A DNA stretch of 64,000 bases from Nanobdellota archaeon (GTDB taxonomy: Archaea; Nanobdellota; Nanobdellia; Pacearchaeales; GW2011-AR1): the NCBI GenBank assembly GCA_021818475.1, contig JAKADZ010000002.1:64536-128535 (forward strand), written 5' to 3'. Below, in pieces: positions 1,021-58,992 of the stretch (positions are counted from its first letter, which is position 1; each line of letters begins with the position of its first letter). The notes below the pieces were generated by a model. That model was not told the origin of the DNA. It worked only from the letters and a program-made list of their open reading frames with translations, and searched no databases. Both the position numbers and the translations under genes were made by a program.

Positions 1021-1230
1021 TCTATCACCTCTTTTTTAAACAGTATTTGAAAATCAGTCATGAACAATATCTTAAAGGGAAAAACATATTAAAGAAAATC
1101 GATTAGGTGTTCTTTAGTTGAACCTTGCATTAAAATTTATCTCAATTAACAATTTTTCTTGACGGAGCGCCCTGACGAAGTCTGGCGCAGAGCGGTATTT
1201 ATTTCAAAAATTTCTGAAAGAAATTTTTGC
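1021..1230 (+). repeat. modular intergenic repeat, copy 1 (A motif, gattaggt module, attaacaattttt module, GC hairpin, D hairpin)
   Basis: tctatcacctctttttt at 1021-1037. ggagcgccctgacgaagtctggcgcagagc at 1164-1193. Perfect hairpin caaaaatttc-tgaaa-gaaatttttg at 1205-1229, identical to 21450-21474. Confidence 0.8.
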
Positions 1231-1250
1231 TATTTTATCTAAGAATAAAA

Positions 1251-1577
1251 TTAGCTTAATTTCATAATTGCATCAGCCAAATCGCCGGTTTCTTCAAGAG
1301 CTTTTTCTGCTTCTTTTTTTGAAGCGCCTGTTTTTTCCATAACGGTCTTAACATCTTCTTCAGAAAACTTTTCCCCCTCTTCTTCGGAAACATCACCGGA
1401 AATCTGGAAAGATTCCTGCCCCTGCATTTTTATCTTTACAACAGAAGGGTTGTTGATAACAATTTTACCGCCATCCTCTTTCTCGATTATAACTCTTGAA
1501 GAAGAAATTTCAGTTTGGTTTATCCCCATCTGCTTCATAACTGCCTGCATTTGTTTTGGATTAATTCCCGGAATCAT
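1251..1577 (-). CDS. nac: nascent polypeptide-associated complex protein (archaeal NAC, NAC + UBA-like C-terminus)
   Basis: 108 aa. Core is NPKQMQAVMKQMGI...IEKEDGGKIVINNPSVVKIKMQGQESFQISG. The C-terminus EEDVKTVMEKTGASKKEAEKALEETGDLADAIMKL is typical of archaeal NAC. Confidence 0.9.
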   Translation of the reverse strand: MIPGINPKQMQAVMKQMGINQTEISSSRVIIEKEDGGKIVINNPSVVKIKMQGQESFQISGDVSEEEGEKFSEEDVKTVMEKTGASKKEAEKALEETGDLADAIMKLS

Positions 1578-1606
1578 TTTATTTCATAGTATTTTTGTTT
1601 TTTAAA

Positions 1607-2482
1607 TTATCCTAACCTTTCCGCTATAATTCTGAATCTCAAATTATCTTCAATTTTGCTCTTGACAAAATCTTCAATATTTTTTCTTCCAGAATCCCTA
1701 AATCTAGAAAAATCAAGAACTTCAGAATTAGTCATTCTCAATAAAGAATAATTCAATCTCGGATTGCATTCAGAATGCTCTTCCTCCCTAATTTGTTCAA
1801 GGAGGTTATACATTTTTTTAGAATCAGAAAAGGATTTTTTCTGGGATAAAAGAAAATTGAGATACAGCAATCCAATAAATCCAAGCTCAAAACCGGAGGA
1901 AATATTCCTATTAAAAAAATTGAAAATTGAATAAGAAAATGATGCAAAAAGAATAAAATAATCCCTAATCTCTTTGGGAGCTTTAGTTAATGGGTATCTT
2001 TCTCCAAAATCAAGCGAATAAGCAAATGCTTCATGAGTAAGCCCAATTTTATTCATAAAAAAAGGGGAATACAGTTTAATTGCTCTATTCTCCCCCAACC
2101 TTGTTCTCACTGAGTGGATTAATTCATGTCTAAATATCTCTTTGTAACTATGATTAAAGAGTTCATAAGAAAGAATTTCATTTACTGAAACAATTGGAAT
2201 TCCTTGATTTTTATATCTTTTAACAGATGTTGTCCCCCCAGTTACCATTTTTCTACTCCAAGGAAGTTTAGCATAAGAACATGAAACCCAGTCAGGATAA
2301 GTCAAAAAATGCTTTTCAAAATCATCAAGTTCAGACGAAACTTCTATTTGATTTTTTCTTTTCGCTTTAAATTCATAAGCCGTATCTAAAAATCTATTTC
2401 CCCTTTCATAAAAATGAGTTTCATTTTCTCTAACCCTTGGAAGAACTCCTTTATGGTCAAGCTCGATTATTGATTGTTTCAT
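1607..2482 (-). CDS. hypothetical protein with HExxH (HELIH) zinc-metalloprotease-like motif and a hydrophobic region
   Basis: 291 aa. FRHELIHSVRT motif, with THEAFAY downstream. Hydrophobic stretch FILFASFSYSIFNFF...GFIGLLYLNFLL. Its start overlaps the stop of the upstream gene by 1 nt. Confidence 0.55.
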   Translation of the reverse strand: MKQSIIELDHKGVLPRVRENETHFYERGNRFLDTAYEFKAKRKNQIEVSSELDDFEKHFLTYPDWVSCSYAKLPWSRKMVTGGTTSVKRYKNQGIPIVSVNEILSYELFNHSYKEIFRHELIHSVRTRLGENRAIKLYSPFFMNKIGLTHEAFAYSLDFGERYPLTKAPKEIRDYFILFASFSYSIFNFFNRNISSGFELGFIGLLYLNFLLSQKKSFSDSKKMYNLLEQIREEEHSECNPRLNYSLLRMTNSEVLDFSRFRDSGRKNIEDFVKSKIEDNLRFRIIAERLG

Positions 2483-3132
2483 TAGAAACTAACAACTTTA
2501 ACTGAATTTAGTTTTTCAATTTCAGAACTAATTTCATCTTTTTTTCTTTTCTTTTTTTCAGTCTCTTTTAAATTAGAAGTTCTTATTTCTTCAGGGGCAT
2601 TAATTAGTTTATACATTAAAGAAGATAATACGTCAGAATTGTTAACTAATTCTTCTATAATCCTAACAGCAAATTTTTCAGAAAATTCAGGAGAAGATTT
2701 GCCGTTTATCACAGATAAATACTTCCTCCATTTCTTCCCAAAAGAAATTTTATCCCAAAAGAAGGAATAATCATGATGATAAAGAGAAATTCCTTCAATT
2801 TTATCATCTCTCTTAAATAAAATTCTGAAAAGATAATATTCTTGATAAGAATTAAGTGTTAAAGACAGGTCAGAATAACCTTCGGGTATTTTTGGAGGTA
2901 TTTCCTCACTATTCCATCTCGGTTTAGGGATATAGTCTTTTAACAGAAAAATATTGTCAATCGCAGTAGAAACTTTTTGTCTAATTAATTCCCGGTATTG
3001 AGTCATCAACTCTTCCTGTTCTCTTGCAATTTTTTGTCTTTCAGAGACGGAATCTTCAATTGTTCTTATTGTCTTTTCAACTTGCCCAGTTTCTGTATCC
3101 TTAAGTCTTTGAATATCTTCTTCAAGTCCCAT
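2482..3132 (-). CDS. hypothetical coiled-coil protein (216 aa)
   Basis: Long ORF translationally coupled to 1607-2482. No recognisable motif. Confidence 0.5.
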   Translation of the reverse strand: MGLEEDIQRLKDTETGQVEKTIRTIEDSVSERQKIAREQEELMTQYRELIRQKVSTAIDNIFLLKDYIPKPRWNSEEIPPKIPEGYSDLSLTLNSYQEYYLFRILFKRDDKIEGISLYHHDYSFFWDKISFGKKWRKYLSVINGKSSPEFSEKFAVRIIEELVNNSDVLSSLMYKLINAPEEIRTSNLKETEKKKRKKDEISSEIEKLNSVKVVSF

Positions 3133-3192
3133 GAAGAAACTATTAAGAAGCAGTTTAAAAATCTTTAGCCTGTTACTATTTTAGAATTAATA

Positions 3193-3351
3193 CTATTTTA
3201 CAAAAATACCCAAAGCTATTCTGAAAACAACTATCATAATAACAAATAGAACCACATGCGCAGGTTTAAGGTTAAATTTACTCTGATATTCTTCCTTGAA
3301 CTTTACAAGTCCGCCAAATCCTGAAGGGACATTTATTCCGCTGTCTGCCAT
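3193..3351 (-). CDS. secG: preprotein translocase subunit Sec61-beta (SecG-type), 52 aa
   Basis: Manual translation: MADSGINVPSGFGGLVKFKEEYQSKFNLKPAHVVLFVIMIVVFRIALGIFVK, ending in a TAG stop. The G-L-V-K-F motif followed by one C-terminal TM helix is the Sec61-beta architecture. It falls below the ORF-track length cutoff. Confidence 0.7.
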   Translation of the reverse strand: MADSGINVPSGFGGLVKFKEEYQSKFNLKPAHVVLFVIMIVVFRIALGIFVK

Positions 3352-3372
3352 TATAAGATTACAAAGATAAGG

Positions 3373-3382
3373 TATTTAAAAG
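3373..3382 (+). promoter_or_regulatory. TATA-box-like element upstream of valS
   Basis: tatttaaaag lies about 20-29 nt before the ATG at 3402. No Shine-Dalgarno is present, which is consistent with a leaderless transcript. Confidence 0.4.
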
Positions 3383-3401
3383 TTTCTTGATATAATATCT
3401 C

Positions 3402-5774: not shown

Positions 5775-5808
5775 CTAATTTTATAAATCGAAATTCTCTT
5801 TTGATGAT

Positions 5809-6897: not shown

Positions 6898-6899
6898 TC

Positions 6900-7223: not shown

Positions 7224-7290
7224 AAATTTTATTATTAGGACTTATTTTTTAAATCTTTCTAGTGATACCATTTTAAAGTTACATTAAACA

Positions 7291-7414
7291 TTATTATCAG
7301 ACAACTTCCTCTGGGGGCGGGCGATTTCGCGAGGACAAATTTCGGTTGTGGAGGGGTGGATGGCGGAGGATAAAAAATCGAGCGAAGTCGCTAGTTGGGC
7401 GGAAAAAAGTCGCT
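7291..7414 (+). repeat. modular intergenic repeat, copy 2 (long GC-rich E module)
   Basis: ctgggggcgggcgatttcgcgagg ... atcgagcgaagtcgctagttgggcgg. Shares the gcgatttcgcg and agcg-a/g-gtcgc..agttggg-y-gg blocks with copies at 27866, 28345, 35061, 53407 and 58905. Confidence 0.8.
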
Positions 7415-7417
7415 TAA

Positions 7418-12997: not shown

Positions 12998-14203
12998 ATG
13001 GAAAGCATAAAGTTTGAAACAATAAAAAAAATCAGTGAAATTGGTTTTAGAAACAGAAATTTAAGGAATATTTCAAAATTAGACAGCAATTCTCCTCCGA
13101 GTGTTTTTATCGGCAGCAAATTAAAATATCCATTAGTCAATGTCGGAATCCTGTCTCCTTTGGAAAGAGAAGATAATGTTCAGATTTATGACGATGCAAA
13201 ATTCTGGGCGGAGAATAACTTAAAGATAGAAGATGTTTTAAGGTTAAGAAATGGTTTGTTAAATTCGCGATTTCAGTCAAATGTTCATGATTCAAGAACA
13301 GAAAAAAATTTTGTTCAGATGGCGCAGGAAATAGCAATCGCCTCTAATCCGGTAGATATCGAGATTGAATTAAAAAATAAATTGAATATGAACAGAAATC
13401 CGGACAAGGTCCTTACTCCCCACGGGATGAGTGCAGGATTAAAAAAAGCAAAGATAGTCAGCAATGTAAAAGTTCATCAGAAAGTTGACCGCGTGATAAA
13501 TGATGAAATCAAAGCAAATGAAGGTATCCAGATGCTTTACAAAAATGGATTTAATGAATACACCCTAAGCAAAATTCTCAGTGTCGGTGTTTTAGGGCTG
13601 AAAAAAAATAAAAAACTTGTTCCGACAAGATGGAGCATCACTGCAACAGATGACTCACTGGGAAAAGTTTTGATAAACAAAATAAAAGACTACCCCGTAA
13701 TTGAAAACTATGAATTATTTTTCGGGGAATTTTTGGGAAATCAATACCTGATAATGCTGTTTCCAAGAATTTGGAGCTATGAACTTTTTGAATTATATCT
13801 CCCAAAGAGTTCCTGGAATCCTTCTGATGAGATAAAAGCTTCAACGGATTACGAAAATTATGAAGGAAGAAAAGAATATGCCTATGCAACTGCCGGAGGA
13901 TATTATGCATCACGGCTTCCTATTGCGGAATATCTAAGTTCAATAAAAAAGCAGGCTTCTGCGCTGGTTATCCGAATTGAAACTCCAAGTTATTGGGCAG
14001 GTCTTGGAGTCTGGGTTGTCAGGGAAAGTGTCAGAAAAGCAATTGCAAAAAAAATGGAATTTACCGACGAAAAAGAACTTATGGAAAGTTCAAAAAAAGT
14101 AGGAAAGATAAAATATGGGTTTGATATTTCAGGAATTTTGTCAAAAAGTTTAATATTAAAAGAAAAAAGGGAGCAAAAATCTCTGAGAGATTTTTGGATT
14201 TAA
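12998..14203 (+). CDS. Nre-family DNA repair protein (DUF650/DUF651)
   Basis: 401 aa. PPSVFIGSKLKYPLVNVGILSP N-terminal signature and VPTRWSITATDD. Adjacent to radB. Confidence 0.7.
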   Translation: MESIKFETIKKISEIGFRNRNLRNISKLDSNSPPSVFIGSKLKYPLVNVGILSPLEREDNVQIYDDAKFWAENNLKIEDVLRLRNGLLNSRFQSNVHDSRTEKNFVQMAQEIAIASNPVDIEIELKNKLNMNRNPDKVLTPHGMSAGLKKAKIVSNVKVHQKVDRVINDEIKANEGIQMLYKNGFNEYTLSKILSVGVLGLKKNKKLVPTRWSITATDDSLGKVLINKIKDYPVIENYELFFGEFLGNQYLIMLFPRIWSYELFELYLPKSSWNPSDEIKASTDYENYEGRKEYAYATAGGYYASRLPIAEYLSSIKKQASALVIRIETPSYWAGLGVWVVRESVRKAIAKKMEFTDEKELMESSKKVGKIKYGFDISGILSKSLILKEKREQKSLRDFWI

Positions 14204-14245
14204 AGTAAAATAAAAAAGAAAAAATAAATTAAGAAAAGCAAAATC

Positions 14246-14275
14246 TTACTTTTTCTTTTTCTTTTTAGCTGCCAT
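14246..14275 (-). CDS. micro-ORF MAAKKKKKK (9 aa) behind a perfect Shine-Dalgarno
   Basis: Minus strand reads AAGGAGGTGATTAGATA-ATG GCA GCT AAA AAG AAA AAG AAA AAG TAA. It is part of a 39-nt perfect repeat (14254-14292 = 14452-14490). Confidence 0.3.
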   Translation of the reverse strand: MAAKKKKKK

Positions 14276-14428
14276 TATCTAATCACCTCCTTATAGGATT
14301 ATTATTTTAATGAATAAGAGTATATTAATTTTTTGTTAATAAAAACATAATGAAACAAGAATAGAAGAAGTTTGTGGGGATTAAATCCCCAAATAAAAAA
14401 ATAAAAATAAAACTAAGTAAGACTCACC

Positions 14429-14473
14429 TTACTTTTTTTTCTTTTTTGCTGTCTTTTTCTTTTTAGCTGCCAT
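14429..14473 (-). CDS. micro-ORF MAAKKKKTAKKKKK (14 aa) behind a perfect Shine-Dalgarno
   Basis: Second copy of the same SD + ATG GCA GCT AAA AAG... unit. Confidence 0.3.
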   Translation of the reverse strand: MAAKKKKTAKKKKK

Positions 14474-14670
14474 TATCTAATCACCTCCTTGCTAATAGTA
14501 AAAATAATTTTAGGAAGTATTTAAATGTTATTCTTTTTTCAAATTTTTTTGAAAAAAATATTTTTAGATCAAAAAATTTGTCGTCGGAAAAATAAAAAAT
14601 AAAAATTTATGATAAAAAATAAAAAAAATTTTGCTAAAAAAATGAAAAAAATAATAAAAAATATCAAAAA

Positions 14671-27559: not shown

Positions 27560-28204
27560 TTATATTTCCTCTTCCAACTTCTTAATTTTCATCCAGACTT
27601 TTTCAAACTTAGTGTTGGACTCATCAACGATTATTTTTAAAAAATTATCATCGACCAAAAGTTTTCCATCCTGAATTATTGGAAGTTCAATTTTTTCGCT
27701 TGCATTAAGTTCAACAATAAAATTTTTTTTAAGTTCAATAATTCCTGATTTTTTCCATCCCGCTAATTTTCCTTTTTCATAAATTTTTTCAGCATCTTCA
27801 AGTGTTTTGCATGCAATATGGAGAATGCACGGTTCGAATTTGAATTTAATATTTTTAATTCCCTTTTGGGTGGGCGAGCGATTTCGCGAAGGAAAGGTCA
27901 GTGACGAGTGAGCAGGGTCACGAGTTGGGTGGGAACTGGTTATAGAAATCAATTTTCCCAATTCATCTTTCAGTTCCTTAAATGAAATTTTATCGTGGGA
28001 AACAAAAACAAATAAGTTCTCTGCCTTTTTATCCTGGTCAATCATAAGTAAAACTCTTCCTGAACATGAAGAAGTGGTGTAATAATTTTCTAGAGAATTT
28101 ATCTTGTCGCATAAAGAAGAAATTTTCTCATCCCATTTTCCAATTGAAGATTTATCTTCTTTTGAGAGAATATCCTTTTTTCTCTGATTAAAATTGTCTT
28201 TCAT
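27560..28204 (-). CDS. taw3: tRNA wyosine-derivative methyltransferase Taw3/TYW3-like, carrying an in-frame repeat insertion
   Basis: NYYTTSSCSGRVLLM motif of the TYW3 family and ...FEPCILHIACKTLEDAEKIYEKGKLAGWKKSGI. Start placed at ATG 28204 (MKDNFNQRKK); the track ORF extends to 28297. Insert peptide is SHPTRDPAHSSLTFPSRNRSPTQKG. Confidence 0.75.
   Translation of the reverse strand: MKDNFNQRKKDILSKEDKSSIGKWDEKISSLCDKINSLENYYTTSSCSGRVLLMIDQDKKAENLFVFVSHDKISFKELKDELGKLISITSSHPTRDPAHSSLTFPSRNRSPTQKGIKNIKFKFEPCILHIACKTLEDAEKIYEKGKLAGWKKSGIIELKKNFIVELNASEKIELPIIQDGKLLVDDNFLKIIVDESNTKFEKVWMKIKKLEEEI
27862..27938 (+). repeat. GC-rich E module of the repeat family located inside the Taw3-like CDS
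   Basis: ccttttgggtgggcgagcgatttcgcgaaggaaaggtcagtgacgagtgagcagggtcacgagttgggtgggaact. ttgggtggg occurs at both ends (27866-27874 and 27925-27933). Confidence 0.9.
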
Positions 28205-28295
28205 AACAGAAAAATGAAAATGAAGGTTAATAAATTTATCAAGTCCTTTTTGAAGTAGAGTGTAACCAGTTGAACAAAGTTTACTTCTTAATTTC

Positions 28296-28435
28296 AATCA
28301 ATCCAAAAAATTCTGAAAGAATTTTTTGCTCTCTTTCTTTTTTGAGTAGGCAAGCGATTTCGCTAATAGAAATTAATTTCCCTTCGGGTGGGAGGGCGGG
28401 GATTAATGAGCGGGGTCGCGAATTGGGGGGAATTA
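28296..28435 (+). repeat. modular intergenic repeat, copy (D hairpin variant + E module with G-quadruplex motif)
   Basis: caaaaaattc-tgaaa-gaattttttg at 28304-28328. gtaggcaagcgatttcgct... gggtgggagggcgggg at 28386-28401. aatgagcggggtcgcgaattgggggg. Confidence 0.85.
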
Positions 28436-28509
28436 GTAATTAATATAAATTATTTTTTCTCCAATTTGGCTCGTTAGAGACGAATTGTATTAATTTAATA
28501 AATGAAAGG

Positions 28510-28537
28510 GAACGAAGTGAACTTTTGAACTTCGTTC
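28510..28537 (-). terminator. hairpin + T-rich tract just downstream of the MBL-fold gene
   Basis: gaacgaagt (28510-28518) pairs with acttcgttc (28529-28537) across a 10-nt loop. It lies 10 nt past the stop at 28548 and is followed on the minus strand by CCCUUUCAUUUAUU. Confidence 0.4.
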
Positions 28538-28547
28538 AAATAGGCAT

Positions 28548-29213
28548 TCATTTTTTCTCCAGAATTTTTGCATGAATTCCATTCTCTTCGCATAACTTCA
28601 CAAACTCTTCTGCATCTTCATTTGTTCCTATGATATTTGCATAATGCATCGGAATTGCAAGTGCAGGTTTTATCAGCTTAGCTGCTTCGGCAGCCTCTTC
28701 TGCATTCATCGTAAACTTTCCCCCTACAGGAAGAAGCGCGATAAATTGTTTATTCTGCTGATTATGTCCTGTAAGTTTCTGCATTTCAGGAATCAAATCA
28801 GTATCTCCTGCATGATAAATAATAACATCATTCATTTTGACAATATAACCAACCCATCCTTCTTCTTTAGGATGATATTGTTTGTCAAGGTTATATGCAG
28901 GCATAGTTGAAATTTTCAGTTCACCAAAACTAAGTTCCTGATTTGGCTCAACAATCTGAATATCTACCGGAACATCAAGTCGGGTAATTTTACTTTGTGA
29001 ATCCGCAGTAAGGACTATCTTGGTTCCTTTTTTAATGATATTTTTTATATCCGCAATACTGCAGTGATCATAATGACTGTGAGTAATAAGAATAATATCA
29101 GCTTTTTCAGAGTTTTCTTTTATATTAAAAGGGTCGATATAAATTATTCTGTGATTTTTTATTAAGAATCCGGAATGACCAAGCCACTGAATTTCTATTT
29201 CCCCTATGTTCAT
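28548..29213 (-). CDS. metallo-beta-lactamase-fold hydrolase (UPF0173-like)
   Basis: 221 aa. QWLGHSGF, ILITHSHYDHC (HxHxDH) and HAGDT motifs. Confidence 0.85.
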   Translation of the reverse strand: MNIGEIEIQWLGHSGFLIKNHRIIYIDPFNIKENSEKADIILITHSHYDHCSIADIKNIIKKGTKIVLTADSQSKITRLDVPVDIQIVEPNQELSFGELKISTMPAYNLDKQYHPKEEGWVGYIVKMNDVIIYHAGDTDLIPEMQKLTGHNQQNKQFIALLPVGGKFTMNAEEAAEAAKLIKPALAIPMHYANIIGTNEDAEEFVKLCEENGIHAKILEKK

Positions 29214-29257: not shown

Positions 29258-30268
29258 TTATCTCTTAGATACGCTTATTCTATGTTTTGAAAAAAATCTG
29301 AATGTAAAAAATCCAAGCACAACAGCGACCAAAACTCCGGAAGAGATGAATACATTTGTTTTGTTGCTGAAGAAATTTCCAACTGCCCCGATAGGTCCTT
29401 TGATTACACTGCCAACTAAGTTAAAGAAATTTTGTTTAGATTGAGTTTGGGTTTCATTTACGATAGGAGAAGTGCAGGCTTGTGAAGTTTCAGGCATTCC
29501 TTCCTGAATTCCGCAATTATTTGAATCTGTACATGCCCTAACCTGAGTCCCGTTAATACATTCCTGCCAGTCACCACAATTCCAGTTAGGAGAACATGTG
29601 GGAGTTTGCTGAATTGCATCCGCAGTTGCTGTAGTTGAAGTGGTATCAGGAGTAGTAGTTGCACTTACACATTCATGAATTATTGAAGGTTCTGTTAAAG
29701 TAGTCCCGCAGGAATTTGAATCAGTACAGGTTCTTGTTTTATTGCCGTTTGTACAATCAGTCCAGTCCGTGCATGTCCAGTTTTCAACACAAGCAGAAGT
29801 GCAAGTCTGGCTTAACACAGGTTCATCATTTGTGGTCCCGCAGGAATTTGAATCAGTACAGGTTCTTGTCTGAGTTCCATCCGTGCAGTCAGTCCAGTCC
29901 GTGCATGCCCAGTTTTCAGCACAGGTTACAGTGGAATTTGTAGTATCTGTTGAATTTGTAACTGTGGAATTTAAATCAGTAGAATTAGTAATTGTGGAAT
30001 TTGTAGTATCTGTTGAATTTGTAACTGTGGAATTTAAATCAGTAGAATTAGTAATTGTGGAATTTGTAGTAGTTGAAGCTGATGCTACAGATAAATCAAC
30101 ACAAGTGTTATTGACCCATGAATAATTAGCTGCCTCGCATGAAGTCTGATTAGTGTAATCTGAAACTGCATAACCGGTAAACTTAAAATTAGACTGAAGA
30201 ATAATAACTCCGATAGCAAAAGCGAGTAGGATCAGAATTCCAAATTCATGTGCAAACCTCTTTTTCAT
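29258..30268 (-). CDS. secreted/membrane-anchored Cys-repeat surface protein rich in N-glycosylation sequons
   Basis: 336 aa. N-terminal signal/TM and C-terminal TM. Three copies of C-x-ENW-x-C-TDW-TDC-x-G-x-x-TRTCTDSNSCGT. Tandem NST-rich segment (TNSTITNSTDLNSTVTNSTDT, two copies). Confidence 0.75.
   Translation of the reverse strand: MKKRFAHEFGILILLAFAIGVIILQSNFKFTGYAVSDYTNQTSCEAANYSWVNNTCVDLSVASASTTTNSTITNSTDLNSTVTNSTDTTNSTITNSTDLNSTVTNSTDTTNSTVTCAENWACTDWTDCTDGTQTRTCTDSNSCGTTNDEPVLSQTCTSACVENWTCTDWTDCTNGNKTRTCTDSNSCGTTLTEPSIIHECVSATTTPDTTSTTATADAIQQTPTCSPNWNCGDWQECINGTQVRACTDSNNCGIQEGMPETSQACTSPIVNETQTQSKQNFFNLVGSVIKGPIGAVGNFFSNKTNVFISSGVLVAVVLGFFTFRFFSKHRISVSKR
29931..30071. repeat. 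perfect 63-bp tandem duplication (2.2 copies) inside the surface-protein gene
   Basis: 29931-29993 is identical to 29994-30056, followed by a partial third copy. The unit is a multiple of 3 and encodes 21 aa of N-x-T sequons. Confidence 0.95.
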
Positions 30269-30329: not shown

Positions 30330-32498
30330 TTATCTTTTCCTTTTCATTTCCCTTCTAATCTTCCTCTTATTTTTTCTTATTTCTTTTCTCTGCTTTCTAC
30401 TTAGTCCATTCTTAGCTCTTCTGTTATGAATAACTCTGATTAAAACAATTGCAAAAATTCCTGTTAAAATTGTTCCTATTAAGAATTTGAACTGTCCTGA
30501 TTTGTAAAATGAAACTGTGCATTTCCCATTGTCGCATGTGTCTGAGCAGTGGTCTGTTACAAGCCATGTTGCATTTCCTAAACATAATTGAACATTATTG
30601 TCCGCGCATCTTGCAGAATTTGGAAGGCAGTCATATTTGTTGAAGAAAATTGCGAAAGTCGAAAATCCAGGAGTTGAAGATTTGAAGTAATAAGCGTTGT
30701 CATCTTCGCCTGTATAATTTGTAATTAAAGGCGCCCAGCTTGAAGTTCCTGTCGGCATTCTGTAAACTGCAATATTTCCGACGATATCATTTTGCAAGAG
30801 CCAGTATCTGTTCGCTTTATGATGAAAAGTGATATTATTTTCTGCAAGGAAAGTTTTGTTTATTTTGAAATCTAAAGTTGCATTTAAAATGTCATTATAT
30901 TGAATTCCTAATGGTTCAATCTGAAATAACTGATACAATTTCCCTATAGGTAATCCGAATAATAAAAATTCAGTCTGGTCAACTTTAGTAATATTCATTG
31001 ATGCATTTTCAACAGACTTTTTCAGAATTAAAGTTATTCCTGTCAAATCCATTTTTGTATTATTTAATGTTATCTGAACAGGTTCTGAAGGAGCTACATT
31101 CATAATAGGTTTTGAAATTGTAACGCTTCCTCCACCGCCACCCCCACTCGGAGATTGAGGCGGAGCTACATGCCCCCCAGTAGAACAAGTTTGGGTTTCT
31201 GCAGGCTTGCCTGCAGTTGTTCCACAAGCATTTGCGTCAGTGCATGTTCTTGTTTGAATTCCTCCAGAACAATCTGACCAAGCAGAACAACCCCACGATT
31301 CAAAGCAGGGGTTTTGCAGGCTGATATTTGAAGCATTTAACTGATAAATGGTATCTCCTCCAAACATAATATTAAGTACTCCCGCATAAACATATCCTCC
31401 CCCAATAGAGATAGAGTTTCCATGACCTGTAGTGGTGTAATTTGCGATTTGCTGTGAAACATTTGAAGCATTTAACTGATAAATTTCATATGGGCCATTA
31501 TCACTACTAAAATAAACGTAGCCGTTTGAAACTGCTGGAGAAGAAGTTGAAAAACCGCTAATATTTGCGATTTGCTGTGAAACATTTGAAGCATTTAACT
31601 GATAAAAGTCATTGTAGTCTCCAATGTAAACGTAGCCGTTTGAAACTGCGGGGGAATAACTCAGACTGGCTCCAGAAGAATAATTTGCGATTTGCTGTGA
31701 AACATTTGAAGCATTTAACTGATAAAGATTATCTGCCCCTACATAAACGTAGCCGTTTGAAACTGCTGGAGAAGAAGGAACAGTATAAAGAGGTATCAAA
31801 TAATTTGCGATTTGCTGTGAAACATTTGAAGCATTTAACTGATAAATTATATATTTTACTGCTCCCTTAAGAGAACTAGAGACAGTAAAATAAACATAGC
31901 CGTTTGAAACTGCTGGAGAAGAAAATGTTTTTCCCCCAGTTGAAAAACTATTTACCATTTGTGAGATATTTGAAGCATTTAACTGATAAAAATTAAAATT
32001 AACAGAATCTCCAACATAAACATAGCCGTTTGAAACTGCTGGAGAATCAAAAGTATCAATTCCCCCAGAATAATTTGCGATTTGCTGTGAAACATTTGAA
32101 GCATTTAACTGATAAAGACCGTTAGAACCAAAGTATAAAAAACCATTTGCAATAACCGGAGAGGAGGAACATACAGCAGAATAATTTGCGATTTGCTGTG
32201 AAACATTTGAAGCATTTAACTGATAAAGATTATCTGCCCCTACATAAACGTAGCCGTTTGAAATTATAGATGGAGAAGGTATACTTGCTAAGGGATTAAA
32301 GGGAGTAGTAAAATTTGCATTGTTTAAATTAGGAATTACTGTAAAATTCTGCCCATCCCAAAAACTATGACCTAAAGTTCTTCCAAACATTAACCATTCA
32401 CTTGTCGAAGAAGAATCTGAACCCTGACTGGAAATAAATAAAATTAAAAATAATAAACATAATGCAAAAATAAAAAAAATAATCCCCTCTTTTTTCAT
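30330..32498 (-). CDS. large surface protein with ~10 PQQ-like beta-propeller repeats, one Cys-repeat module, C-terminal TM and basic tail
   Basis: 722 aa with a signal peptide. Repeats are of the form SPAVSNGYVYVG...YQLNASNVSQQIANYS. Also CFESWGCSAWSDCSGGIQTRTCTDANACGT, a Gly-rich linker, a TM helix and RRAKNGLSRKQRKEIRKNKRKIRREMKRKR. Confidence 0.8.
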   Translation of the reverse strand: MKKEGIIFFIFALCLLFLILFISSQGSDSSSTSEWLMFGRTLGHSFWDGQNFTVIPNLNNANFTTPFNPLASIPSPSIISNGYVYVGADNLYQLNASNVSQQIANYSAVCSSSPVIANGFLYFGSNGLYQLNASNVSQQIANYSGGIDTFDSPAVSNGYVYVGDSVNFNFYQLNASNISQMVNSFSTGGKTFSSPAVSNGYVYFTVSSSLKGAVKYIIYQLNASNVSQQIANYLIPLYTVPSSPAVSNGYVYVGADNLYQLNASNVSQQIANYSSGASLSYSPAVSNGYVYIGDYNDFYQLNASNVSQQIANISGFSTSSPAVSNGYVYFSSDNGPYEIYQLNASNVSQQIANYTTTGHGNSISIGGGYVYAGVLNIMFGGDTIYQLNASNISLQNPCFESWGCSAWSDCSGGIQTRTCTDANACGTTAGKPAETQTCSTGGHVAPPQSPSGGGGGGSVTISKPIMNVAPSEPVQITLNNTKMDLTGITLILKKSVENASMNITKVDQTEFLLFGLPIGKLYQLFQIEPLGIQYNDILNATLDFKINKTFLAENNITFHHKANRYWLLQNDIVGNIAVYRMPTGTSSWAPLITNYTGEDDNAYYFKSSTPGFSTFAIFFNKYDCLPNSARCADNNVQLCLGNATWLVTDHCSDTCDNGKCTVSFYKSGQFKFLIGTILTGIFAIVLIRVIHNRRAKNGLSRKQRKEIRKNKRKIRREMKRKR
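31321..32270. repeat. array of near-identical intragenic repeats (44-nt perfect core, 6 full + 2 partial copies)
   Basis: atttgcgatttgctgtgaaacatttgaagcatttaactgataaa occurs at 31440, 31563, 31683, 31803, 32073 and 32184. Partial copies lie at 31324 and 31957. Confidence 0.95.
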
Positions 32499-33564: not shown

Positions 33565-34947
33565 TTATTCTCCTTTTCGACGACTTCCTGCCGTCGGGTT
33601 GCTGGAGTTGGGAAGAACCCGCTGGAGGTTAACCTTTTCAAAGCTTCTTGCAATCTGAAATAATTTTTGTTCGTTTAATTTTTCACAGATAATCTGCATT
33701 CCTATGGGGATTTTATCAATTTCCCCCGCAGGTATGCTGATAGCACAGTCCCCTGATAAATTAATGGGGGAAGTTAATGCATCATATTGGAACATTTCCT
33801 CAATTGAAATTTTCTCTCCGATTTTATGGGGAAGCCTTGGAACAGTCGGGCAGATTAAACAATCAAACTTCCTGAAAGTTTTTTTGAATTCTTCCTCAAT
33901 TAACTTCCTTGCTTTCAGAGCAAGATGATAATATCTTCCTGCATGTTCTGCCTTGCTTATTTCACTTCCACCCAAAATTCTTCTCAAAACTTCAGGTCCG
34001 CATGCTTCTTCAATTTTTTTCCCGAATCTTCTGCCATCAAGTCTTCTTGTACATGAAAAAAATTCAGTATAAACAATTGGAAAATAAGTTGCAACAGCAA
34101 AATCGATGTATTCTAATTTTATTTTTTCCGATTTCCACTTATATTTTTTAACAGTTTCCTCAATTTTTTTGTCAATTAAATTCTGAATTCGCAGGTCATT
34201 TATTTTAAAATCCAAAATTCCTATTTTAATATCTCGCGGAACTTCTTCAACTTCTTTGAGATTAATATTACTGCCCAAACTAATTGCATCTTTTTCATCT
34301 TTTCCTTTGATAATATCGAATAAAAGTGCGGCATCAGAAACATTTTTTGCAATCGGCCCGACCTGATCTAAACTCATGCTCATGTCAATTAAACCGTATC
34401 TTGAAACACTCCCGTAGCTTGGTTTTAATCCTACAACTCCGCAATGAGATGCAGGAACTCTTATGCTTCCGCCGGTATCGCTTCCTAAGGACATATCGCA
34501 AAAATCTGCAGAAACACTCGCGCAGCTTCCGGATGAACTTCCTCCCGCAACTAGTCCTAATGATTTTGGATTATTCGTCGCACCAAACGCAGAAGTTTCT
34601 CCGCTCCAGCCGCATGCAAATTCATCGCAGTTTGCCATTCCGATAATTAATCCGTCTTCCTCTTTTATTTTTTTTATAACTTCTGCATCGTAAGGAGATT
34701 TATAATTTTCCAAAACTTTGCTTCCGCATGATGCATGCAATCCAAGAACATTTATGTTAGCTTTAACAGCAATTATTTTTCCTGCAAGTTTTCCCGCTTT
34801 CTTTTTCTTGATTTTCTCATCAATCAGCTTCGCTTCTTCCATCGCATTAGGATTTATCTCAAGAATTGCATTTATTCTGTTTCCGCTTTTATTATGCATT
34901 TCAATCTGATTCAAGTATGTTTGAAGTCGTTCTTGTGTCGTTACCAT
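33565..34947 (-). CDS. gatA: Asp/Glu-tRNA amidotransferase subunit A
   Basis: 460 aa with the amidase signature (GGSSSGSCASV, ANCDEFACG, GSDTGGSIRVPAS). Confidence 0.92.
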   Translation of the reverse strand: MVTTQERLQTYLNQIEMHNKSGNRINAILEINPNAMEEAKLIDEKIKKKKAGKLAGKIIAVKANINVLGLHASCGSKVLENYKSPYDAEVIKKIKEEDGLIIGMANCDEFACGWSGETSAFGATNNPKSLGLVAGGSSSGSCASVSADFCDMSLGSDTGGSIRVPASHCGVVGLKPSYGSVSRYGLIDMSMSLDQVGPIAKNVSDAALLFDIIKGKDEKDAISLGSNINLKEVEEVPRDIKIGILDFKINDLRIQNLIDKKIEETVKKYKWKSEKIKLEYIDFAVATYFPIVYTEFFSCTRRLDGRRFGKKIEEACGPEVLRRILGGSEISKAEHAGRYYHLALKARKLIEEEFKKTFRKFDCLICPTVPRLPHKIGEKISIEEMFQYDALTSPINLSGDCAISIPAGEIDKIPIGMQIICEKLNEQKLFQIARSFEKVNLQRVLPNSSNPTAGSRRKGE

Positions 34948-35312
34948 TTCTTTTTCTCCGCAATTATAAAATCTTTATTTGCTTCTGGTGCATTTTCAAA
35001 CATTATTCTCTTGTCAAGTTCGCAGATTTTTGAAGTTTCGCGAATAGAATTATTTCCCCGTTGGGTGGGCGAGCGATTTCGCGAAGTTGAGGTCAGTGTT
35101 ATGTGAGCGGGGTCGGGAGTTGGGTGGGAATTAATGAGCGAAACAGAATTTTCTTCCCTTTCAAATTTTTCCCGTTCAATTGAATTATCAACTTCAATCT
35201 TTTGTTTAATCTGAGAAAGTTTCTTGGAGAAAGAATCAATTATAGAATCAACCTGTTTCTTTACTTCTTCCTTTTCTTTATCAGACATTTGTCGCCATAA
35301 AAAATCATCCAT
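34941..35312 (-). CDS. gatC: GatC-like amidotransferase subunit C carrying an in-frame repeat insertion
   Basis: Overlaps the gatA start by 7 nt. The C-terminus ...RIMFENAPEANKDFIIAEKK resembles the GatC L-x-N-A-P...F-x-V-P tail. Insert peptide is SHPTPDPAHITLTSTSRNRSPTQRG. Confidence 0.55.
   Translation of the reverse strand: MDDFLWRQMSDKEKEEVKKQVDSIIDSFSKKLSQIKQKIEVDNSIEREKFEREENSVSLINSHPTPDPAHITLTSTSRNRSPTQRGNNSIRETSKICELDKRIMFENAPEANKDFIIAEKKKW
35055..35140 (+). repeat. GC-rich E module of the repeat family located inside the GatC-like CDS
   Basis: tccccgttgggtgggcgagcgatttcgcgaagttgaggtcagtgttatgtgagcggggtcgggagttgggtgggaattaatgagcg. ttgggtggg occurs at 35061-35069 and 35120-35128, the same 59-nt spacing as in the Taw3 copy. 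Confidence 0.9.
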
Positions 35313-44228: not shown

Positions 44229-44625
44229 TTATCACCTCTTTTTTATTTAAGAAGTTGGATTTAATCTGTTTTATTTTGTTGGGATTTCATTTGAGTTTTT
44301 TCTCCTTAACAATTTTTCCGGCGTAGCGTCGTGTCTGAAAGCCGACACAAAGCAATCAATAATAAAAAAAGAAAGGATAAAATTTTTCTTCCCTCTTCGG
44401 ATGTGCGAGCGTTTGCACAAGTGATAACTTTCCTCTTGGGGCGGGGGCGGGAAGAAAATTCCCTTGAATATGAGAAACTTCGCGAGTAGAAACATTTTCC
44501 CTTCGGGCGTGAGGGGGGGAATAAATGAGCGAAGTCGCGAATGAAATTCTATTAAATAAATTTACTCCATAAAAAAATATTCCTTTGGGGAGGGCGGGTG
44601 GGAACGGGTAGAATAAGGCAAGAAA
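44229..44625 (+). repeat. largest cluster of the modular repeat (A motif, hairpin module, several E-type GC modules, G-quadruplex motif)
   Basis: ttatcacctctttttt at 44229-44244. gtgtc-tgaaagcc-gacac hairpin. gatgtgcgagcgtttgcac. ggggcgggggcggg at 44438-44451. aatgagcgaagtcgcgaatg. ggggagggcgggtggg at 44587-44602. Confidence 0.85.
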
Positions 44626-44828: not shown

Positions 44829-44990
44829 TTGGGTAAAATAATCTTCCGATTTTTAAAGATTATTGTGATAAAAATTCCTTTTAAGTTACGATTAAAAAAA
44901 TTTCCTTTGGGTTTTCTACCACATTAGGTTCTTTCCGAATTTCTATGCGGAATGGGTAAGTTTCTACTCTCACTTTTTTCAAAAGAACCC

Positions 44991-45009
44991 ATGAGCCCAC
45001 GAGGAATTG
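44991..45009 (-). repeat. duplicated 3' fragment of tRNA-Arg (19 nt, identical to 45164-45182)
   Basis: atgagcccacgaggaattg is repeated exactly, covering the T-loop/T-stem/acceptor 3' strand plus 1 nt. The two copies are separated by 154 bp. Confidence 0.9.
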
Positions 45010-45079
45010 GGCCTCACGTTCGCTCGACCTAATTCATCTTTTTCAAATCCGAATTAAACCCAAGAGTTCAATTCAAATA

Positions 45080-45135: not shown

Positions 45136-45164
45136 TAAAGAAACCGTGTAGGTTTCGTTCATTA

Positions 45165-45236
45165 TGAGCCCACGAGGAATTGAACCCCGATCAACCGGTC
45201 CGAAGCCGATTGTTCTATCCGTTAAACTATGGGCCC
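45165..45236 (-). tRNA. tRNA-Arg (anticodon UCG)
   Basis: Manual fold, 72 nt: acceptor GGGCCCA/UGGGCUC, D arm GUUU-AACGGAUA-GAAC, anticodon arm AUCGG-CUUCGGA-CCGGU, variable UGAU, T arm CGGGG-UUCAAUU-CCUCG, discriminator A. CCA is not encoded. Confidence 0.9.
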
Positions 45237-45286
45237 ATAAAAAGTAGAGGAATAAGGTTTTTATATGTTATTTGCATACTAAAAAA

Positions 45287-52627: not shown

Positions 52628-52699
52628 ATTTTAGAAGTTATTTATTTCTAGAAAACATATTAGAAATTTCTCAATAGGAGAAGCTTACTCTAAGAAAAG

Positions 52700-53320: not shown

Positions 53321-53325
53321 TTACT

Positions 53326-53485
53326 TTATCGCCTCTTTTTTAAAACATATTTGCAGTTAATTCTAATTAACCAACAGATTTTTCCCTCATTAACAAATTT
53401 TCCCTCGGGGGTGGGCGAGAGTTTTCGCAATGCCAGTAAATTTTTGAATGCATTTGCGAGGGCTCGAGTTGGGCGGGAACAAGTA
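53326..53485 (+). repeat. modular intergenic repeat, copy (A-motif variant, attaacaaatttt module, long E module)
   Basis: ttatcgcctcttttt at 53326-53340. gggggtgggcgagagttttcgcaatg...tttgcgagggctcgagttgggcgggaac at 53407-53480. Confidence 0.8.
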
Positions 53486-53539
53486 AGGGTTTAAGTGGTA
53501 AATAATAAATAAATACAAACGTGGATTAAAAACAGATTA

Positions 53540-54577: not shown

Positions 54578-54652
54578 AAGAAAAAGAGCAGGCTTTATTA
54601 TATAAGGTTTTGGAACCGAGAGATTTAAAAATATCAAGTTTTCTAAAGAAGA

Positions 54653-55339
54653 ATGGGAAAAACAAGATTAAAGATAAATAAAGAAATACCAGAAATTCGC
54701 TTAGATGACTGGATAAAAAAACATGACTTCGAAATTAGGAAGATTATGGACCTTGAGGAGGTTAGTTTAAATTATACAAAAGAAATTCTTGATGACTTTA
54801 AAAGAACGATAGCCCGAATGGAGCAAGACTTAGATTATCCGTTGCCCATGGAAGATAAACAAATTATATTTGAAAAGAGAGAGAATTTACAAGCCTCAAG
54901 TTATGAAGAAATAATTGAGGAAATAAAAACATACGGGAAAGTTATTTCTCGTGCAGCAGTTTGTGATAGATTAAAAGACGGAACCTTTTTAATAAGACAA
55001 GGAATTTCTGAAAAAGGAAGTTACCTTCCAAAACATTTGGTTTTAGAATATTTATCACATGAATTCGGGCATACTTTAGGAAATTGTATAGAAGATGTAC
55101 TAGATGAAGAACTAAAGGCATATACTTTTGCGTCATTATTCTTTAAGTATTATAACGGAAAATCTCTTTATTCAACATTCACAAATAAACAAAAGGAGGA
55201 TATTCACCGCCGAGCATTAAGAGAACTGGGAAAAATATTGCGGGCAGGAATTTCTGAAGAAACAATTATCTCTCATTTGATTAAGGAAAAGTTTGGAAAA
55301 GCAAAACCAACTGATTTGTTCAAATTTCTTATGAACTAA
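54653..55339 (+). CDS. hypothetical protein with HExxH (HEFGH) motif
   Basis: 228 aa. YLSHEFGHTLGNCIEDVLDEELKAY could be a gluzincin-like site. Otherwise unrecognised. Confidence 0.5.
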   Translation: MGKTRLKINKEIPEIRLDDWIKKHDFEIRKIMDLEEVSLNYTKEILDDFKRTIARMEQDLDYPLPMEDKQIIFEKRENLQASSYEEIIEEIKTYGKVISRAAVCDRLKDGTFLIRQGISEKGSYLPKHLVLEYLSHEFGHTLGNCIEDVLDEELKAYTFASLFFKYYNGKSLYSTFTNKQKEDIHRRALRELGKILRAGISEETIISHLIKEKFGKAKPTDLFKFLMN

Positions 55340-56391: not shown

Positions 56392-57326
56392 TTCAATAAT
56401 CCTTCTTTTTTCATTTTTTCGAGAACACTGCTCATTATGAGAGGAAAAGTTATTGAAACATCTCCGATAACTGTAGCAGCTTCTCCGTCATCTTTTATTT
56501 TTCCCCATGATTTTGCTTCCTGTGTCGTAGCCCCCGACATAGAGCCGGAACTTGAATGCGAAGTTGTAAGATAAACTGCATAATCAAAACCTCCTGAAAG
56601 CAAAGCAGCAAAGATTGCATAATGTTTTGAGATGCTCCCTCCTAAGGAGATTAATCCTTTTTTCTCATCAAAACTTAAATCAACAGTTATTCTCTCCATA
56701 TCTTTTATGACATCAACAACAAAATCAGGATGTTTTTGCTGGAACATATATAACTGAAAACCAAAAGAAGAATCTGCAATTCCTGGGCAATAAATAGGAA
56801 TATTATTTTTAGCTGCCTGAAATAAAACTGAATTATTATCGTTTAGCATCATTCCTATTTCATAAATTAATTCAGAAGAGGAAATTCTTTTTTTCTTCTC
56901 ATAAATTTTTTCTAAAAGTTCAGTCATCTTATCTTCAAATTTCATGTAACCCGAAGTATGGATTAACAAATTGCCAACTCTGTTTTCCCCGCGTTCATGC
57001 ATTGAAACATCATCAGCATTAAAATTAGTTATTTCAAAATTTTCTCCAAGAGATTTTATGATATCTTCCTCAATCGAACCGGAAGTGGTTACGAGAATAT
57101 TTGGAATATTTAATTCGCATAATTGTGCAAAAAATCCTCTCAATCCAGAAGTCGCCATGTTAGAAGTAAATGTAAGAAAAATCCTTGCATTTGTTCTTTT
57201 CATTTTCATAATTACTTTGACTGCTTCAGAAAGTTCTGTCGCCTGATAGCCGACAGAGCCGAGACTATCAACGAGCGCCTCAACAGACATACCTTCAGAC
57301 CATAAAAAATCTTTGACTAATTTCAT
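56388..57326 (-). CDS. dys: deoxyhypusine synthase
   Basis: 312 aa. IFLTFTSNMATSGLRG, NILVTTSGSIEEDI and LISLGGSISKH blocks are typical of DHS. Confidence 0.88.
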   Translation of the reverse strand: MKLVKDFLWSEGMSVEALVDSLGSVGYQATELSEAVKVIMKMKRTNARIFLTFTSNMATSGLRGFFAQLCELNIPNILVTTSGSIEEDIIKSLGENFEITNFNADDVSMHERGENRVGNLLIHTSGYMKFEDKMTELLEKIYEKKKRISSSELIYEIGMMLNDNNSVLFQAAKNNIPIYCPGIADSSFGFQLYMFQQKHPDFVVDVIKDMERITVDLSFDEKKGLISLGGSISKHYAIFAALLSGGFDYAVYLTTSHSSSGSMSGATTQEAKSWGKIKDDGEAATVIGDVSITFPLIMSSVLEKMKKEGLLK

Positions 57327-57480
57327 TTTAGAAAAAGCACAGCTACACTTATTGTTTTGGAATCGGAATCGCCAAAATAGTGTAATCGCTCTGCATAAAA
57401 AAACTAAAATAAGGTCATTTTTAAATCTTCCTCAAGAAATATTCAAAGTTCTAAAGACATAAGTTTCAGGCGAGTCAATC

Positions 57481-58233
57481 CTAACTTGCTCTCCTAACTG
57501 CCCTTACCCCGAGAGCGGAAAACTGATTAGAGGGAATCCTGCTGCAAATGAGGCTAACCCACTCGGGATCAGCAACGAACCTAGCGACTGAATTATTATC
57601 GCTTCGCGAATACCAATAATATAAATTTCCTGATTTAATTTTTTTATTTGGAAGTCCTTGTTTTGTATGAGAGTTATCTAAATAATCTTCCAAAGAAATT
57701 CCCGGCTCTTTATCTTTCATTAGAGTATCTCTATCAAGAATGTTTGAACTTCTTGGAACAAGATTTCCATTTGAATCTAAAATATGATTATAATTAATTA
57801 CTAAATCTTTTCCGTTTGTTTTAAAATAAGCATCAATCCATTCTGCTCTCTGAGGATTTCTTACTTCGGTAATTTCTTTGTAAATATCTTGGTGATTTAT
57901 TTTGCAATATTTCAAGAACTCAATAAACTCAGGAAGAATCAACATTCTTTCATTATTTGCCTGAAGAAGTTTATGGCAATCAAACCAATTTTCTCCTAAA
58001 CAAGTTCTTTCTTTTGCAACATAAAGATTTATTGAAGGAACATAAATAAAACGATTATCTTTTTGAAGAGAAGTATGTCTTTCTAATATCTCTTTTACTC
58101 TCTCTTGATTTAATCTTAAACTTGGATCAGAACAAACTTCCTGAATAAATGATAAATCTTCTCCTTGAGATAAGAAATCTCTGATTATCTCTCTTTCTGT
58201 CTGATAAGTTTCAGTTAATTCTTCAGTTTGCAT
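57481..58233 (-). CDS. hypothetical protein (250 aa) with a GC-rich 3' end
   Basis: Clean ORF with no motif recognised. The last ~40 codons (57481-57610) are visibly GC-richer than the rest. Confidence 0.5.
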   Translation of the reverse strand: MQTEELTETYQTEREIIRDFLSQGEDLSFIQEVCSDPSLRLNQERVKEILERHTSLQKDNRFIYVPSINLYVAKERTCLGENWFDCHKLLQANNERMLILPEFIEFLKYCKINHQDIYKEITEVRNPQRAEWIDAYFKTNGKDLVINYNHILDSNGNLVPRSSNILDRDTLMKDKEPGISLEDYLDNSHTKQGLPNKKIKSGNLYYWYSRSDNNSVARFVADPEWVSLICSRIPSNQFSALGVRAVRRAS

Positions 58234-58360
58234 TCTATTACCTGATTAATCTTATTTAAAAAACTTTCTAATGTAACTTCTTAAAAGTTATAACAATAAA
58301 GAGGTTATTAATAACTTTTTTAGATTAACAAAATTTTCAATAATATCAAAAAAAGGGTAA

Positions 58361-58391
58361 CTTTTTCCCTCAGGGTGGGCGGGTGGGACTG
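58361..58391 (+). repeat. repeat-family fragment: short E module = G-quadruplex motif
   Basis: ctttttccctcagggtgggcgggtgggactg, with gggtgggcgggtggg at 58373-58387. Confidence 0.75.
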
Positions 58392-58494
58392 ATGAAGGAT
58401 GAAAATTTTCTAGAATTGATGTGCGATTTAACAAATAATAAAAATATAGTTCTACTACAAAAATCTTTTTAAATGGAAATTTTATAGAAATTGT

Positions 58495-58680
58495 ATGAAT
58501 AAATGGATTGAAATTTTGTTTGGATTGATTCTTCTGAACGGAGCAATCTTCACTTGGATGACAAATTTCTGGGCATTAGGTGACGCCGCATTGACTTTCT
58601 TCAAGGGCGGATTGGTTTGGATGGTTATCCTTTTAGGGTTTGTTTTTATCGTTCTTGGAATTAGCGACCTTAAAGATTAA
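58495..58680 (+). CDS. small membrane protein (61 aa, 2 TM)
   Basis: IEILFGLILLNGAIFTW and LVWMVILLGFVFIVLGI hydrophobic helices. Confidence 0.5.
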   Translation: MNKWIEILFGLILLNGAIFTWMTNFWALGDAALTFFKGGLVWMVILLGFVFIVLGISDLKD

Positions 58681-58682
58681 TC

Positions 58683-58992
58683 AGGCTTAACCAAAAAGGA
58701 AAACGGGTTAGATTATTTTAGTTAGTTCAAACACAAATTCAGGAAAGTTTAAACAAAAATTTAAGGAATTTCTTTATTAACAAATTTCCAAACAGAGCGC
58801 CTTGACGAATGTCTGGCGCGAAGCAATCAACATCAAAATTTCAGGGAAATTTTTAAGAAAGGATTAGGTTGTCTTCAACAGGCTTGACCACACTTTCAAG
58901 GGGAAAATGTGTGCGAGCGATTTCGCGGAAGTGAGGCCAGTGATATGCAAGCGAGGTCGCGAGTTGAGAAAACCGATTAGGTTGTCTTCAAC
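58683..58992 (+). repeat. modular intergenic repeat cluster (GC hairpin module, D hairpin variant, gattaggt module twice, long E module)
   Basis: agagcgccttgacgaatgtctggcgcgaagc. aaaatttc-agg-gaaatttt at 58835-58853. gattaggttgtcttcaac at 58862-58879 and again at 58975-58992. gtgtgcgagcgatttcgcggaagtgaggccagtgatatgcaagcgaggtcgcgagttgag. Confidence 0.85.

Follow-up and report, generated by a model that had tools for sequence, protein, structure and literature searches.

The 64,000-nt window analysed here (part of contig JAKADZ010000002.1 from an uncultured Pacearchaeota species of the DPANN archaea; 33% G+C; encoding NAC, TFS, CDC48, TYW3 and Nre) carries five copies of a small palindromic hairpin, termed D. 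With moderate confidence we read D as the closing T-run stem-loop of a lineage-specific composite repeat that has multiplied in this one species and resembles repetitive extragenic palindromes (REP), bacterial interspersed mosaic elements (BIME) and miniature inverted-repeat transposable elements (MITE). D occurs together with other modules, which keep the order T-A-B-D-G on the + strand, each of them being optional, and this arrangement recurs at ∼12 loci. While the neighbouring genes occupy both strands, all modules lie on the + strand (+/− counts: B 5/0, short G 7/0, long G 5/0, T 6/0, D homologues 7/0), which suggests that propagation is linked to a single DNA strand. The window has five divergent intergenic regions of 90 nt or more, and all five are free of modules, in contrast to convergent and tandem regions. 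The spread within one lineage, the single polarity and the avoidance of divergent promoter regions make the composite resemble REP, BIME, BOX and MITE-like elements and not conserved regulators.

The D copies form a directional sequence family

All five hairpins listed in the initial annotation were recovered by an exhaustive scan for perfect stems, and their coordinates, arms and loops were exact (Table 1). The 25-mers at 1205–1229 and 21450–21474 are identical as claimed, the copy at 28304–28328 combines a left-arm T>A change with an A>T change at the pairing position, and the arms at 27523–27547 each contain one additional A·T pair. That the arms are perfect in all five copies is true of the hairpins as trimmed; the copy at 58835–58853 was shortened to 8 bp by uncompensated changes, with an A deleted from the left arm and the outer G replaced by A according to the alignment and pair table.

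Outside the arms the copies also agree in non-palindromic flanks, AATCRATCC to the left and GCAATTTT to the right. Since flanks are common to them as well as arms, they represent one sequence family in one orientation and not independent hairpins, and the 8-bp copy at 58835 is assigned to this family only because of its flanks. A covariance model built from the aligned copies was scored at every position of the window and gave six matches on the + strand, with E values of 7e-11 to 4e-6 and a next best E of 0.12. Its scores were 39–58 bits on the + strand versus 25–36 bits on the − strand, which indicates that D copies are directional. By this model the window holds no homologous D copies beyond the five. 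The sixth match, a look-alike palindrome at 14174–14196, was considered as a further copy with a compensatory C-G pair and was rejected, because it results from the choice of synonymous codons for the conserved peptide QKSLRDF; the synonymous codons used by a relative for the same peptide break the palindrome. At gathering score, Rfam 15 detected only two tRNAs in the window, and the hairpins had no match even at E ≤ 5.

Contigs of the same species contributed two extra copies. One of them, CC-AAAAATTTC-TAA-GAAATTTTT-AC (L177:11872-11892), lies immediately past window base 64000, and the other, CAAAAAAATTC-ATA-GAATTTTTTTG (L187:16346-16385), ∼5.4 kb ahead of window base 1 in the + orientation of the window. 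The homologous set comprises these two flanking and the five window copies, in ∼84 kb of one genome. A sequence near 44355 is possibly a copy that has decayed. Short-read contigs from other samples end exactly at D, L177 and L178 just past base 64000, L191 and L192 at base 1234; these ends might be the assembly break expected of a repeated palindrome.

Organisation of the composite repeat

The T module has the sequence ATCACCTCTTTTTT and the A module the sequence ATTAACAA, with an AT box ahead of A. B is a G+C-rich hairpin with a GAA-type loop, and at two loci the D arm sequence recurs in its outer stem. B and D are joined by the spacer AATCAATC, and D is often followed by at least one G-rich structured module. 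Ahead of every B start, an AT-rich box occupies positions −33 to −22 and ATTAACAA positions −17 to −10. B and the long G modules contain U·G pairs, which are functional on the + strand only. The D copy at 21450 is flanked by a B-variant hairpin on one side and a G-rich module on the other; the copies at 1205 and 27523 lie 21 nt past the stop codon of NAC and 12 nt past that of TYW3, both of which are minus-strand genes.

Due to the AT box and ATTAACAA ahead of B and the T5-T7 run at the end of D, we read AT box-A-B-D as a small cassette that would lead from a promoter to a hairpin. Read on either strand, D has T5-T7 in the 3' arm, so that it could act as a terminator or 3'-end element of the U-tract type. 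A short unit starting at B would thereby be ended on the + strand and give rise to a short hairpin RNA. Since D is palindromic, its T-run also faces NAC and TYW3, and on the − strand D may incidentally end these two convergent genes.

Restriction to one lineage

The contigs that other samples yielded for the same species were 99.9–100% identical and had kept all D copies, and such a degree of identity makes them uninformative on mobility. In four relative lineages, represented by L181-183 (CDC48 92% identical), L184-186 (CDC48 90%), L193-194 (146-aa protein 90%) and L195 (146-aa protein 88%), the D, B, long G and T modules are absent from syntenic loci of 12–22 kb. For three of the window copies the orthologous sites were compared, and D is absent there. 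The spacing between NAC and the gene of the 146-aa protein is 78 nt in L193 versus 303 nt here; the lactamase-fold gene and TYW3 overlap (ATGA) in L002, while an insert of ∼340 nt, bearing the D copy at 28304, separates them here; and two relatives have plain sequence downstream of CDC48. Two orthologous TYW3 loci were compared (L001 and L002; TYW3 of the relatives is 76–94% identical). L001, with the closest TYW3 (94%), has another combination of modules 3' of this gene and no D.

A search of 185,579 species-representative genomes with the flank and outer-arm pattern TCRATCCAAAAA-N13-TTTTTGC returned 50 single matches in unrelated bacteria and archaea, which corresponds to chance level. These matches were used as null set; in 47 of the 50 the stem continues toward the loop for no more than 1 bp, and the only one with a full inner stem (L049) was rejected as a different palindrome.

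These comparisons show that the D copies are paralogues, dispersed through duplication or mobilisation, and not vertically conserved sites. D is a family of repeats seen in this single uncultured Pacearchaeota species only and is not a conserved regulatory RNA. Selection on the stem-loop had been proposed in the initial annotation, with lack of conservation in related genomes named as the finding that would speak against it. Since D is missing from the four relative lineages and from both TYW3 loci, this proposal fails in its strong form.

Pairing of the arms and its origin

The arms of the seven homologues are of the forms A5T3C (three copies), A6T2C (one), A7T2C (two) and A4T3C (one), and their inner nine base pairs show only symmetric changes. 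Five loop forms occur (TGAAA in three copies, as well as GTA, ATA, TAA and AGG), and the flanks diverge too. Since the loops drift faster than the inner arms, something maintains the matching of the arms. In the aligned set 96% of cells pair, compared to 34–70% when the 3' partners are slid by 1–3 columns, and shuffles are also much worse. Arm complementarity is being kept.

The kept pairing bears out the covariation argument in part, but the conclusion of selection on a stem-loop goes too far. Double changes were seen at five pairs, but in a set of seven sequences with one non-homologous row, that of the 14174 look-alike, from which one tallied C-G change stems. The A7T2 form is common to two copies, and the independent symmetric events amount to ∼2, being A·T↔T·A swaps or additions where the A-run meets the T-run. 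Uncompensated changes occur as well, namely the loss of the outer C-G pair in two copies, the deleted A at 58835 and a solo right arm. Moreover, the copies were selected as hairpins, which biases the pair statistics toward pairing. Since all compensated changes are A·T↔T·A, G·U pairs number zero and the palindrome is the same on both strands, the pattern does not distinguish RNA from DNA.

Template switching during replication can copy one arm to the other in a single event without selection, and it can create and maintain perfect stems (PMC8794818). In a DNA palindrome it would yield the same symmetric pattern. Arm-to-arm correction of this kind probably contributes to D and selection may do so too; the arms would remain complementary because the hairpin itself is copied and kept.

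Wider occurrence of the hairpin core

The 23-nt core AAAAWWTTCTGAAAGAAWWTTTT was found in at least 120 metagenome contigs (L053-L172) with a G+C content of 21–55%, in 104 distinct contexts among the matches listed. In 84 of the 104 contexts the two variable pairs are each complementary, versus 25% by chance, and in 51 of the 84 the stem extends outward by at least 3 bp with many different sequences. Some of the contigs are bacterial, one carrying a bacterial 16S rRNA and others a tRNA-Tyr of the long-arm type, and some are archaeal. Within one bacterial family, roughly every second copy has its loop in the reverse orientation with respect to the flanks (10 versus 11). The other modules of the window occur in none of the listed metagenome contigs with the core. 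Viral contigs were not enriched, with one match for the target pattern versus three and zero for two scrambled controls. Rfam gave no match at the related metagenome hairpins, and a full-text literature search for the core sequence returned irrelevant papers only.

Alternative explanations

Perfect stems of at least 8 bp are as frequent in the window as in its dinucleotide shuffles (16 observed versus 16.0 expected), the 8-bp copy at 58835 is unremarkable by itself, and the look-alike at 14174 illustrates that such palindromes can arise in coding sequence. One might hence regard D as a set of chance A/T-rich palindromes in a genome of 33% G+C, with covariation as an artefact of choosing perfect hairpins. 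We give this hardly any credence. There is a 6-fold enrichment of stems of 10 bp or more (8 versus 1.25 in shuffles) and an 11-fold enrichment of those of 11 bp or more (5 versus 0.45), the excess consisting mostly of D copies, and two of the copies are identical 25-mers. Neighbouring modules are shared too, and nearly all matches of the null set lack an inner stem. It is the common flanks together with the gap between model matches (E ≤ 4e-6) and background (E ≥ 0.12) that effectively refute chance.

An RNA element is a more serious contender, yet we judge it unlikely that D is mainly selected as a bidirectional U-tract terminator or a stem-loop protecting 3' ends, the association with the modules being secondary. 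Such a role would agree with the compensation of all inner-arm changes beside variable loops and with the T5-T7 run that the 3' arm presents on either strand. Two copies closely follow a stop codon, and at TYW3 the hairpin provides the first T-run after it; in sequence terms, T5-T7 at 12–21 nt past the stops of TYW3 and NAC would suit an archaeal oligo-T signal (at least five T shortly past the gene end). Related hairpins also lie 1–5 nt past tRNA 3' ends in the metagenome contigs L079 and L153. However, most genes of the window end without D, D is missing behind the same genes in close relatives, and the orientation of its flanks is fixed independently of the gene strand. D further differs from a bacterial intrinsic terminator by having only two G-C pairs and a T-run within the stem, and a scan for bacterial-type terminators in 20500–29000 reported none of the three D copies there. 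The lack of G·U pairs also argues against an RNA element, and archaeal termination is generally thought to require only a T-run.

Less probable still, and in our opinion quite improbable, is a palindromic DNA site whose half-sites change together, either a TATA-like promoter element acting in one or both directions or a site for a dimeric protein. In its favour, the core ends 5–7 nt ahead of an intron-containing tRNA-Leu in the archaeal contigs L064, L072, L140, L111 and L154. The left arm AAAAATTTC then lies at about −29 to −21, the usual position of a TATA box, and no other AT-rich stretch is nearby. In the window, G-rich modules begin 7–10 nt past D (21484, 28335), and all changes are strand-symmetric. 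Against it, promoters of this genome use a TTTAAA-type box ∼27 nt before the ATG, from which the AAATTT arms differ and for which reason D was also rejected as ordinary promoter of its neighbour genes. TYW3 and the gene of the 146-aa protein have boxes of their own nearer to the ATG, two copies of D are directed into convergent genes from the 3' end, D is missing upstream of most G modules, and with loops of 3 to 5 nt the spacing of the half-sites varies. As D flanks TYW3, a mimic of the tRNA-Phe anticodon loop was considered as well; this was rejected due to the mismatch between the loop CUGAAAG and CUGAAGA.

Comparison with known repeat families

BOX elements of Streptococcus pneumoniae consist of ordered boxA-boxB-boxC modules, each with stem-loop potential, and Rickettsia palindromic elements (RPE) are integrated within protein-coding genes with the reading frame kept. 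An orientation bias toward one strand results from single-strand transposition that is coupled to replication. The composite resembles BOX in its ordered modules, and RPE in that a long G module, not D, lies in frame in TYW3; both comparisons concern the general description of these elements and involve no sequence similarity.

REP and BIME of enterobacteria and pseudomonads are specific to a species, and roles in termination or in the protection of mRNA ends have been proposed for them (PMC3184786; PMC3733652). REP are imperfect extragenic palindromes of 20–40 bp in many copies, to which the seven D copies compare with 19–25 bp in ∼84 kb, all of them intergenic. Like BIME, which form mosaic arrays with short motifs, D is set in a fixed mosaic with other motifs, T-A-B-D-G, and it shares with both the position at gene 3' ends and in convergent or tandem gaps as well as the species specificity. 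It differs from them in being A/T-rich instead of G+C-rich, in lying on one strand instead of alternating, and in its DPANN host. While REP stems carry a conserved GTAG or CGTC tetranucleotide at one end (PMC3733652), neither occurs at the foot of the D stem, which reads C-A5.../...T5-G with the flanks AATCRATC and CAATTTT.

DPANN genomes were reported among the most MITE-dense archaea (PMC11602168). D resembles MITE and the palindrome-associated elements derived from IS200/IS605 in being small and non-coding, in its strong hairpin potential, its restriction to a lineage and its multiplication within the genome. The composite differs from MITE in being an array of optional modules instead of one bounded element, and no partner transposase was found here.

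Several points weigh against a mobile or repeat-like composite closed by D. Neither a transposase nor a RAYT-type gene (a Y1 HUH transposase) was found with Pfam among the window ORFs (open reading frames) and in flanks of ∼20 kb, the part of the genome examined. Terminal inverted repeats and clean target-site duplications were not found around the composite, the two sides of B-D carrying similar direct motifs (CAATTTTTCT) instead of inverted ones. The relatives lack the inserts, but at 76–92% protein identity they are too diverged for an empty-site comparison to define junctions, and the samples of the species showed no presence/absence polymorphism. In addition, the homologous copies number only seven, in ∼84 kb of a single genome, and both proposed boundaries of the unit, B as its start and D as its end, are inferred. 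Finally, the occurrence of the same 23-nt core in many unrelated metagenome lineages hints at a wider role, which a lineage-specific composite does not cover.

Module coordinates and further observations

Table 1. Coordinates of D, the accompanying modules and the look-alike palindrome in the window
Feature	Position	Strand	Remarks
D hairpin	1205..1229	+	CAAAAATTTC-TGAAA-GAAATTTTTG; model 53.1 bits on +, 31.8 on −
D hairpin	21450..21474	+	Same 25-mer as at 1205; 58.5 bits
D hairpin	27523..27547	+	Arms A7T2, loop GTA
D hairpin	28304..28328	+	Arms A6T2, loop TGAAA
D hairpin	58835..58853	+	8-bp stem, loop AGG; outer positions unpaired; 38.8 bits
Solo right arm and right flank	20632..20648	+	AAAATTTTTGCAATATT; abuts A module, without left arm; 16.5 bits
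Look-alike palindrome	14174..14196	+	3' end of Nre coding sequence, peptide QKSLRDF
B module	1161..1193	+	GCGCC..GAC-GAA-GTC..GGCGC hairpin, just 5' of D
B-module variant	21404..21441	+	Outer stem GAAATTTTTCC/GGAAAAATTTC, reused D arm sequence
B module	27482..27513	+
B module	58790..58824	+
AT box and A module	1128..1160	+	ATTAAAATTTAT and ATTAACAAtttttctt; −33 to −1 relative to B start
AT box and A, same layout	21372-21403, 27449-27481, 58757-58789, 63878-63907, 44296-44319
T module	27410..27422	+	ATCACCTCTTTTT; immediately past CDC48 stop codon
Other T modules	1024, 17646, 20545, 44231, 53328	+
Short G-rich module	21484..21510	+	TTCTCTTGGGGCGGGTGGGCCGGGAAG; 10 nt past D
Similar short G modules	11041, 17736, 28386, 44439, 44587, 58373	+
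Long G-rich module	28335..28440	+	GCGATTTCGC...GCGGGGTCGC helix; begins 7 nt past D
Long G paralogues	7294-7417, 27860-27952, 35052-35150, 53397-53502, 58899-58978		27860-27952 in frame within TYW3

The T motif TTATCACCTCTTTTTT is similar to the anti-Shine-Dalgarno sequence at the 3' end of 16S rRNA and is followed by a T-run; it is also present at L187:16473 (−). In the window it occurs on the + strand only, mostly within 30 nt after the stops of + strand genes, and after none of the ∼36 minus-strand genes. The short G modules are runs of GGGNGGGNGGGNGGG and could form G-quadruplexes. In the relative L195, one short G module is reversed relative to the same neighbouring gene. A reading of B as C/D box or k-turn was dropped, as no consistent box order was apparent by eye, and origin-recognition boxes were rejected for the G-rich modules, because these are scattered over 84 kb in a single orientation.

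A direct repeat of 13–14 nt, GATTAGGTTGTCT, at 58862–58876 and 58975–58987 brackets the long G module 58899–58978 and might stem from duplication of a target site or from a local duplication event. The long G module in TYW3 (27560–28204, minus strand) adds ∼27–31 residues (..SSHPTRDPAHSSLTFPSRNRSPT..). Most Pacearchaeota TYW3 proteins have 186–187 aa and no such insert, and several have variable inserts with similar peptides in the same loop. A second ORF holding a long G copy is located at 34941–35312 on the minus strand.

Partial duplications of tRNA genes were observed at two places. An intron-containing tRNA-Lys(CUU) at 21573–21666 (−), detected by Rfam and missed by ARAGORN, has partial duplicates of its 5' part upstream (21737–21770 and 21848–21866), and a relative (L184:7130-7300) carries the same tRNA-Lys in opposite orientation, likewise with a partial 5' duplicate. 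The intact tRNA-Arg(UCG) gene has a partial duplicate of its 3' part at a distance of ∼130 nt (44983–45041 and 45164–45237, −), which may be an integration remnant. Two tandem, tiny, lysine-rich ORFs on the minus strand (14230–14300 and 14420–14495), MAAKKKKKK* and MAAKKKKTAKKKKKVR*, both have a perfect AAGGAGGTGAT Shine-Dalgarno sequence, and a similar ORF is present in the relative L184. ORF 30330–32498 (minus) contains tandem coding repeats of ∼111–135 nt at 31300–32300 and encodes a beta-propeller-like protein with weak PQQ_2 and ACSF4 beta-propeller matches. A difference in repeat length near 29994–30008 distinguishes one contig of the same species from the window.

Implications

As a kind of object, D alone is an ordinary small dispersed palindromic repeat. 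It carries a warning, as symmetric changes in a multi-copy DNA palindrome mimic RNA covariation, here alongside complete absence from the sister lineages. More speculatively, the composite could belong to an undescribed, strand-polarised system of modular structured repeats. Cassettes and G modules would be copied onto one DNA strand, perhaps via a single-stranded intermediate tied to replication, and G modules could land in frame in genes such as TYW3. The D core AAAAWTTTC-TGAAA-GAAAWTTTT would then be a hairpin signal common to many small-genome archaea and bacteria, also beside tRNA genes. We regard this broader proposal as possible but doubtful.

To our knowledge, the combination of ordered modules, total strand polarity and an in-frame insert in a conserved gene for tRNA modification has not been described for DPANN archaea. 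The strand polarity and the in-frame insertion in TYW3 are more interesting than the hairpin itself. If the polarity tracks the direction of replication, the modules could serve as a possible replichore marker in uncultured genomes and could point to a mobility based on single strands.

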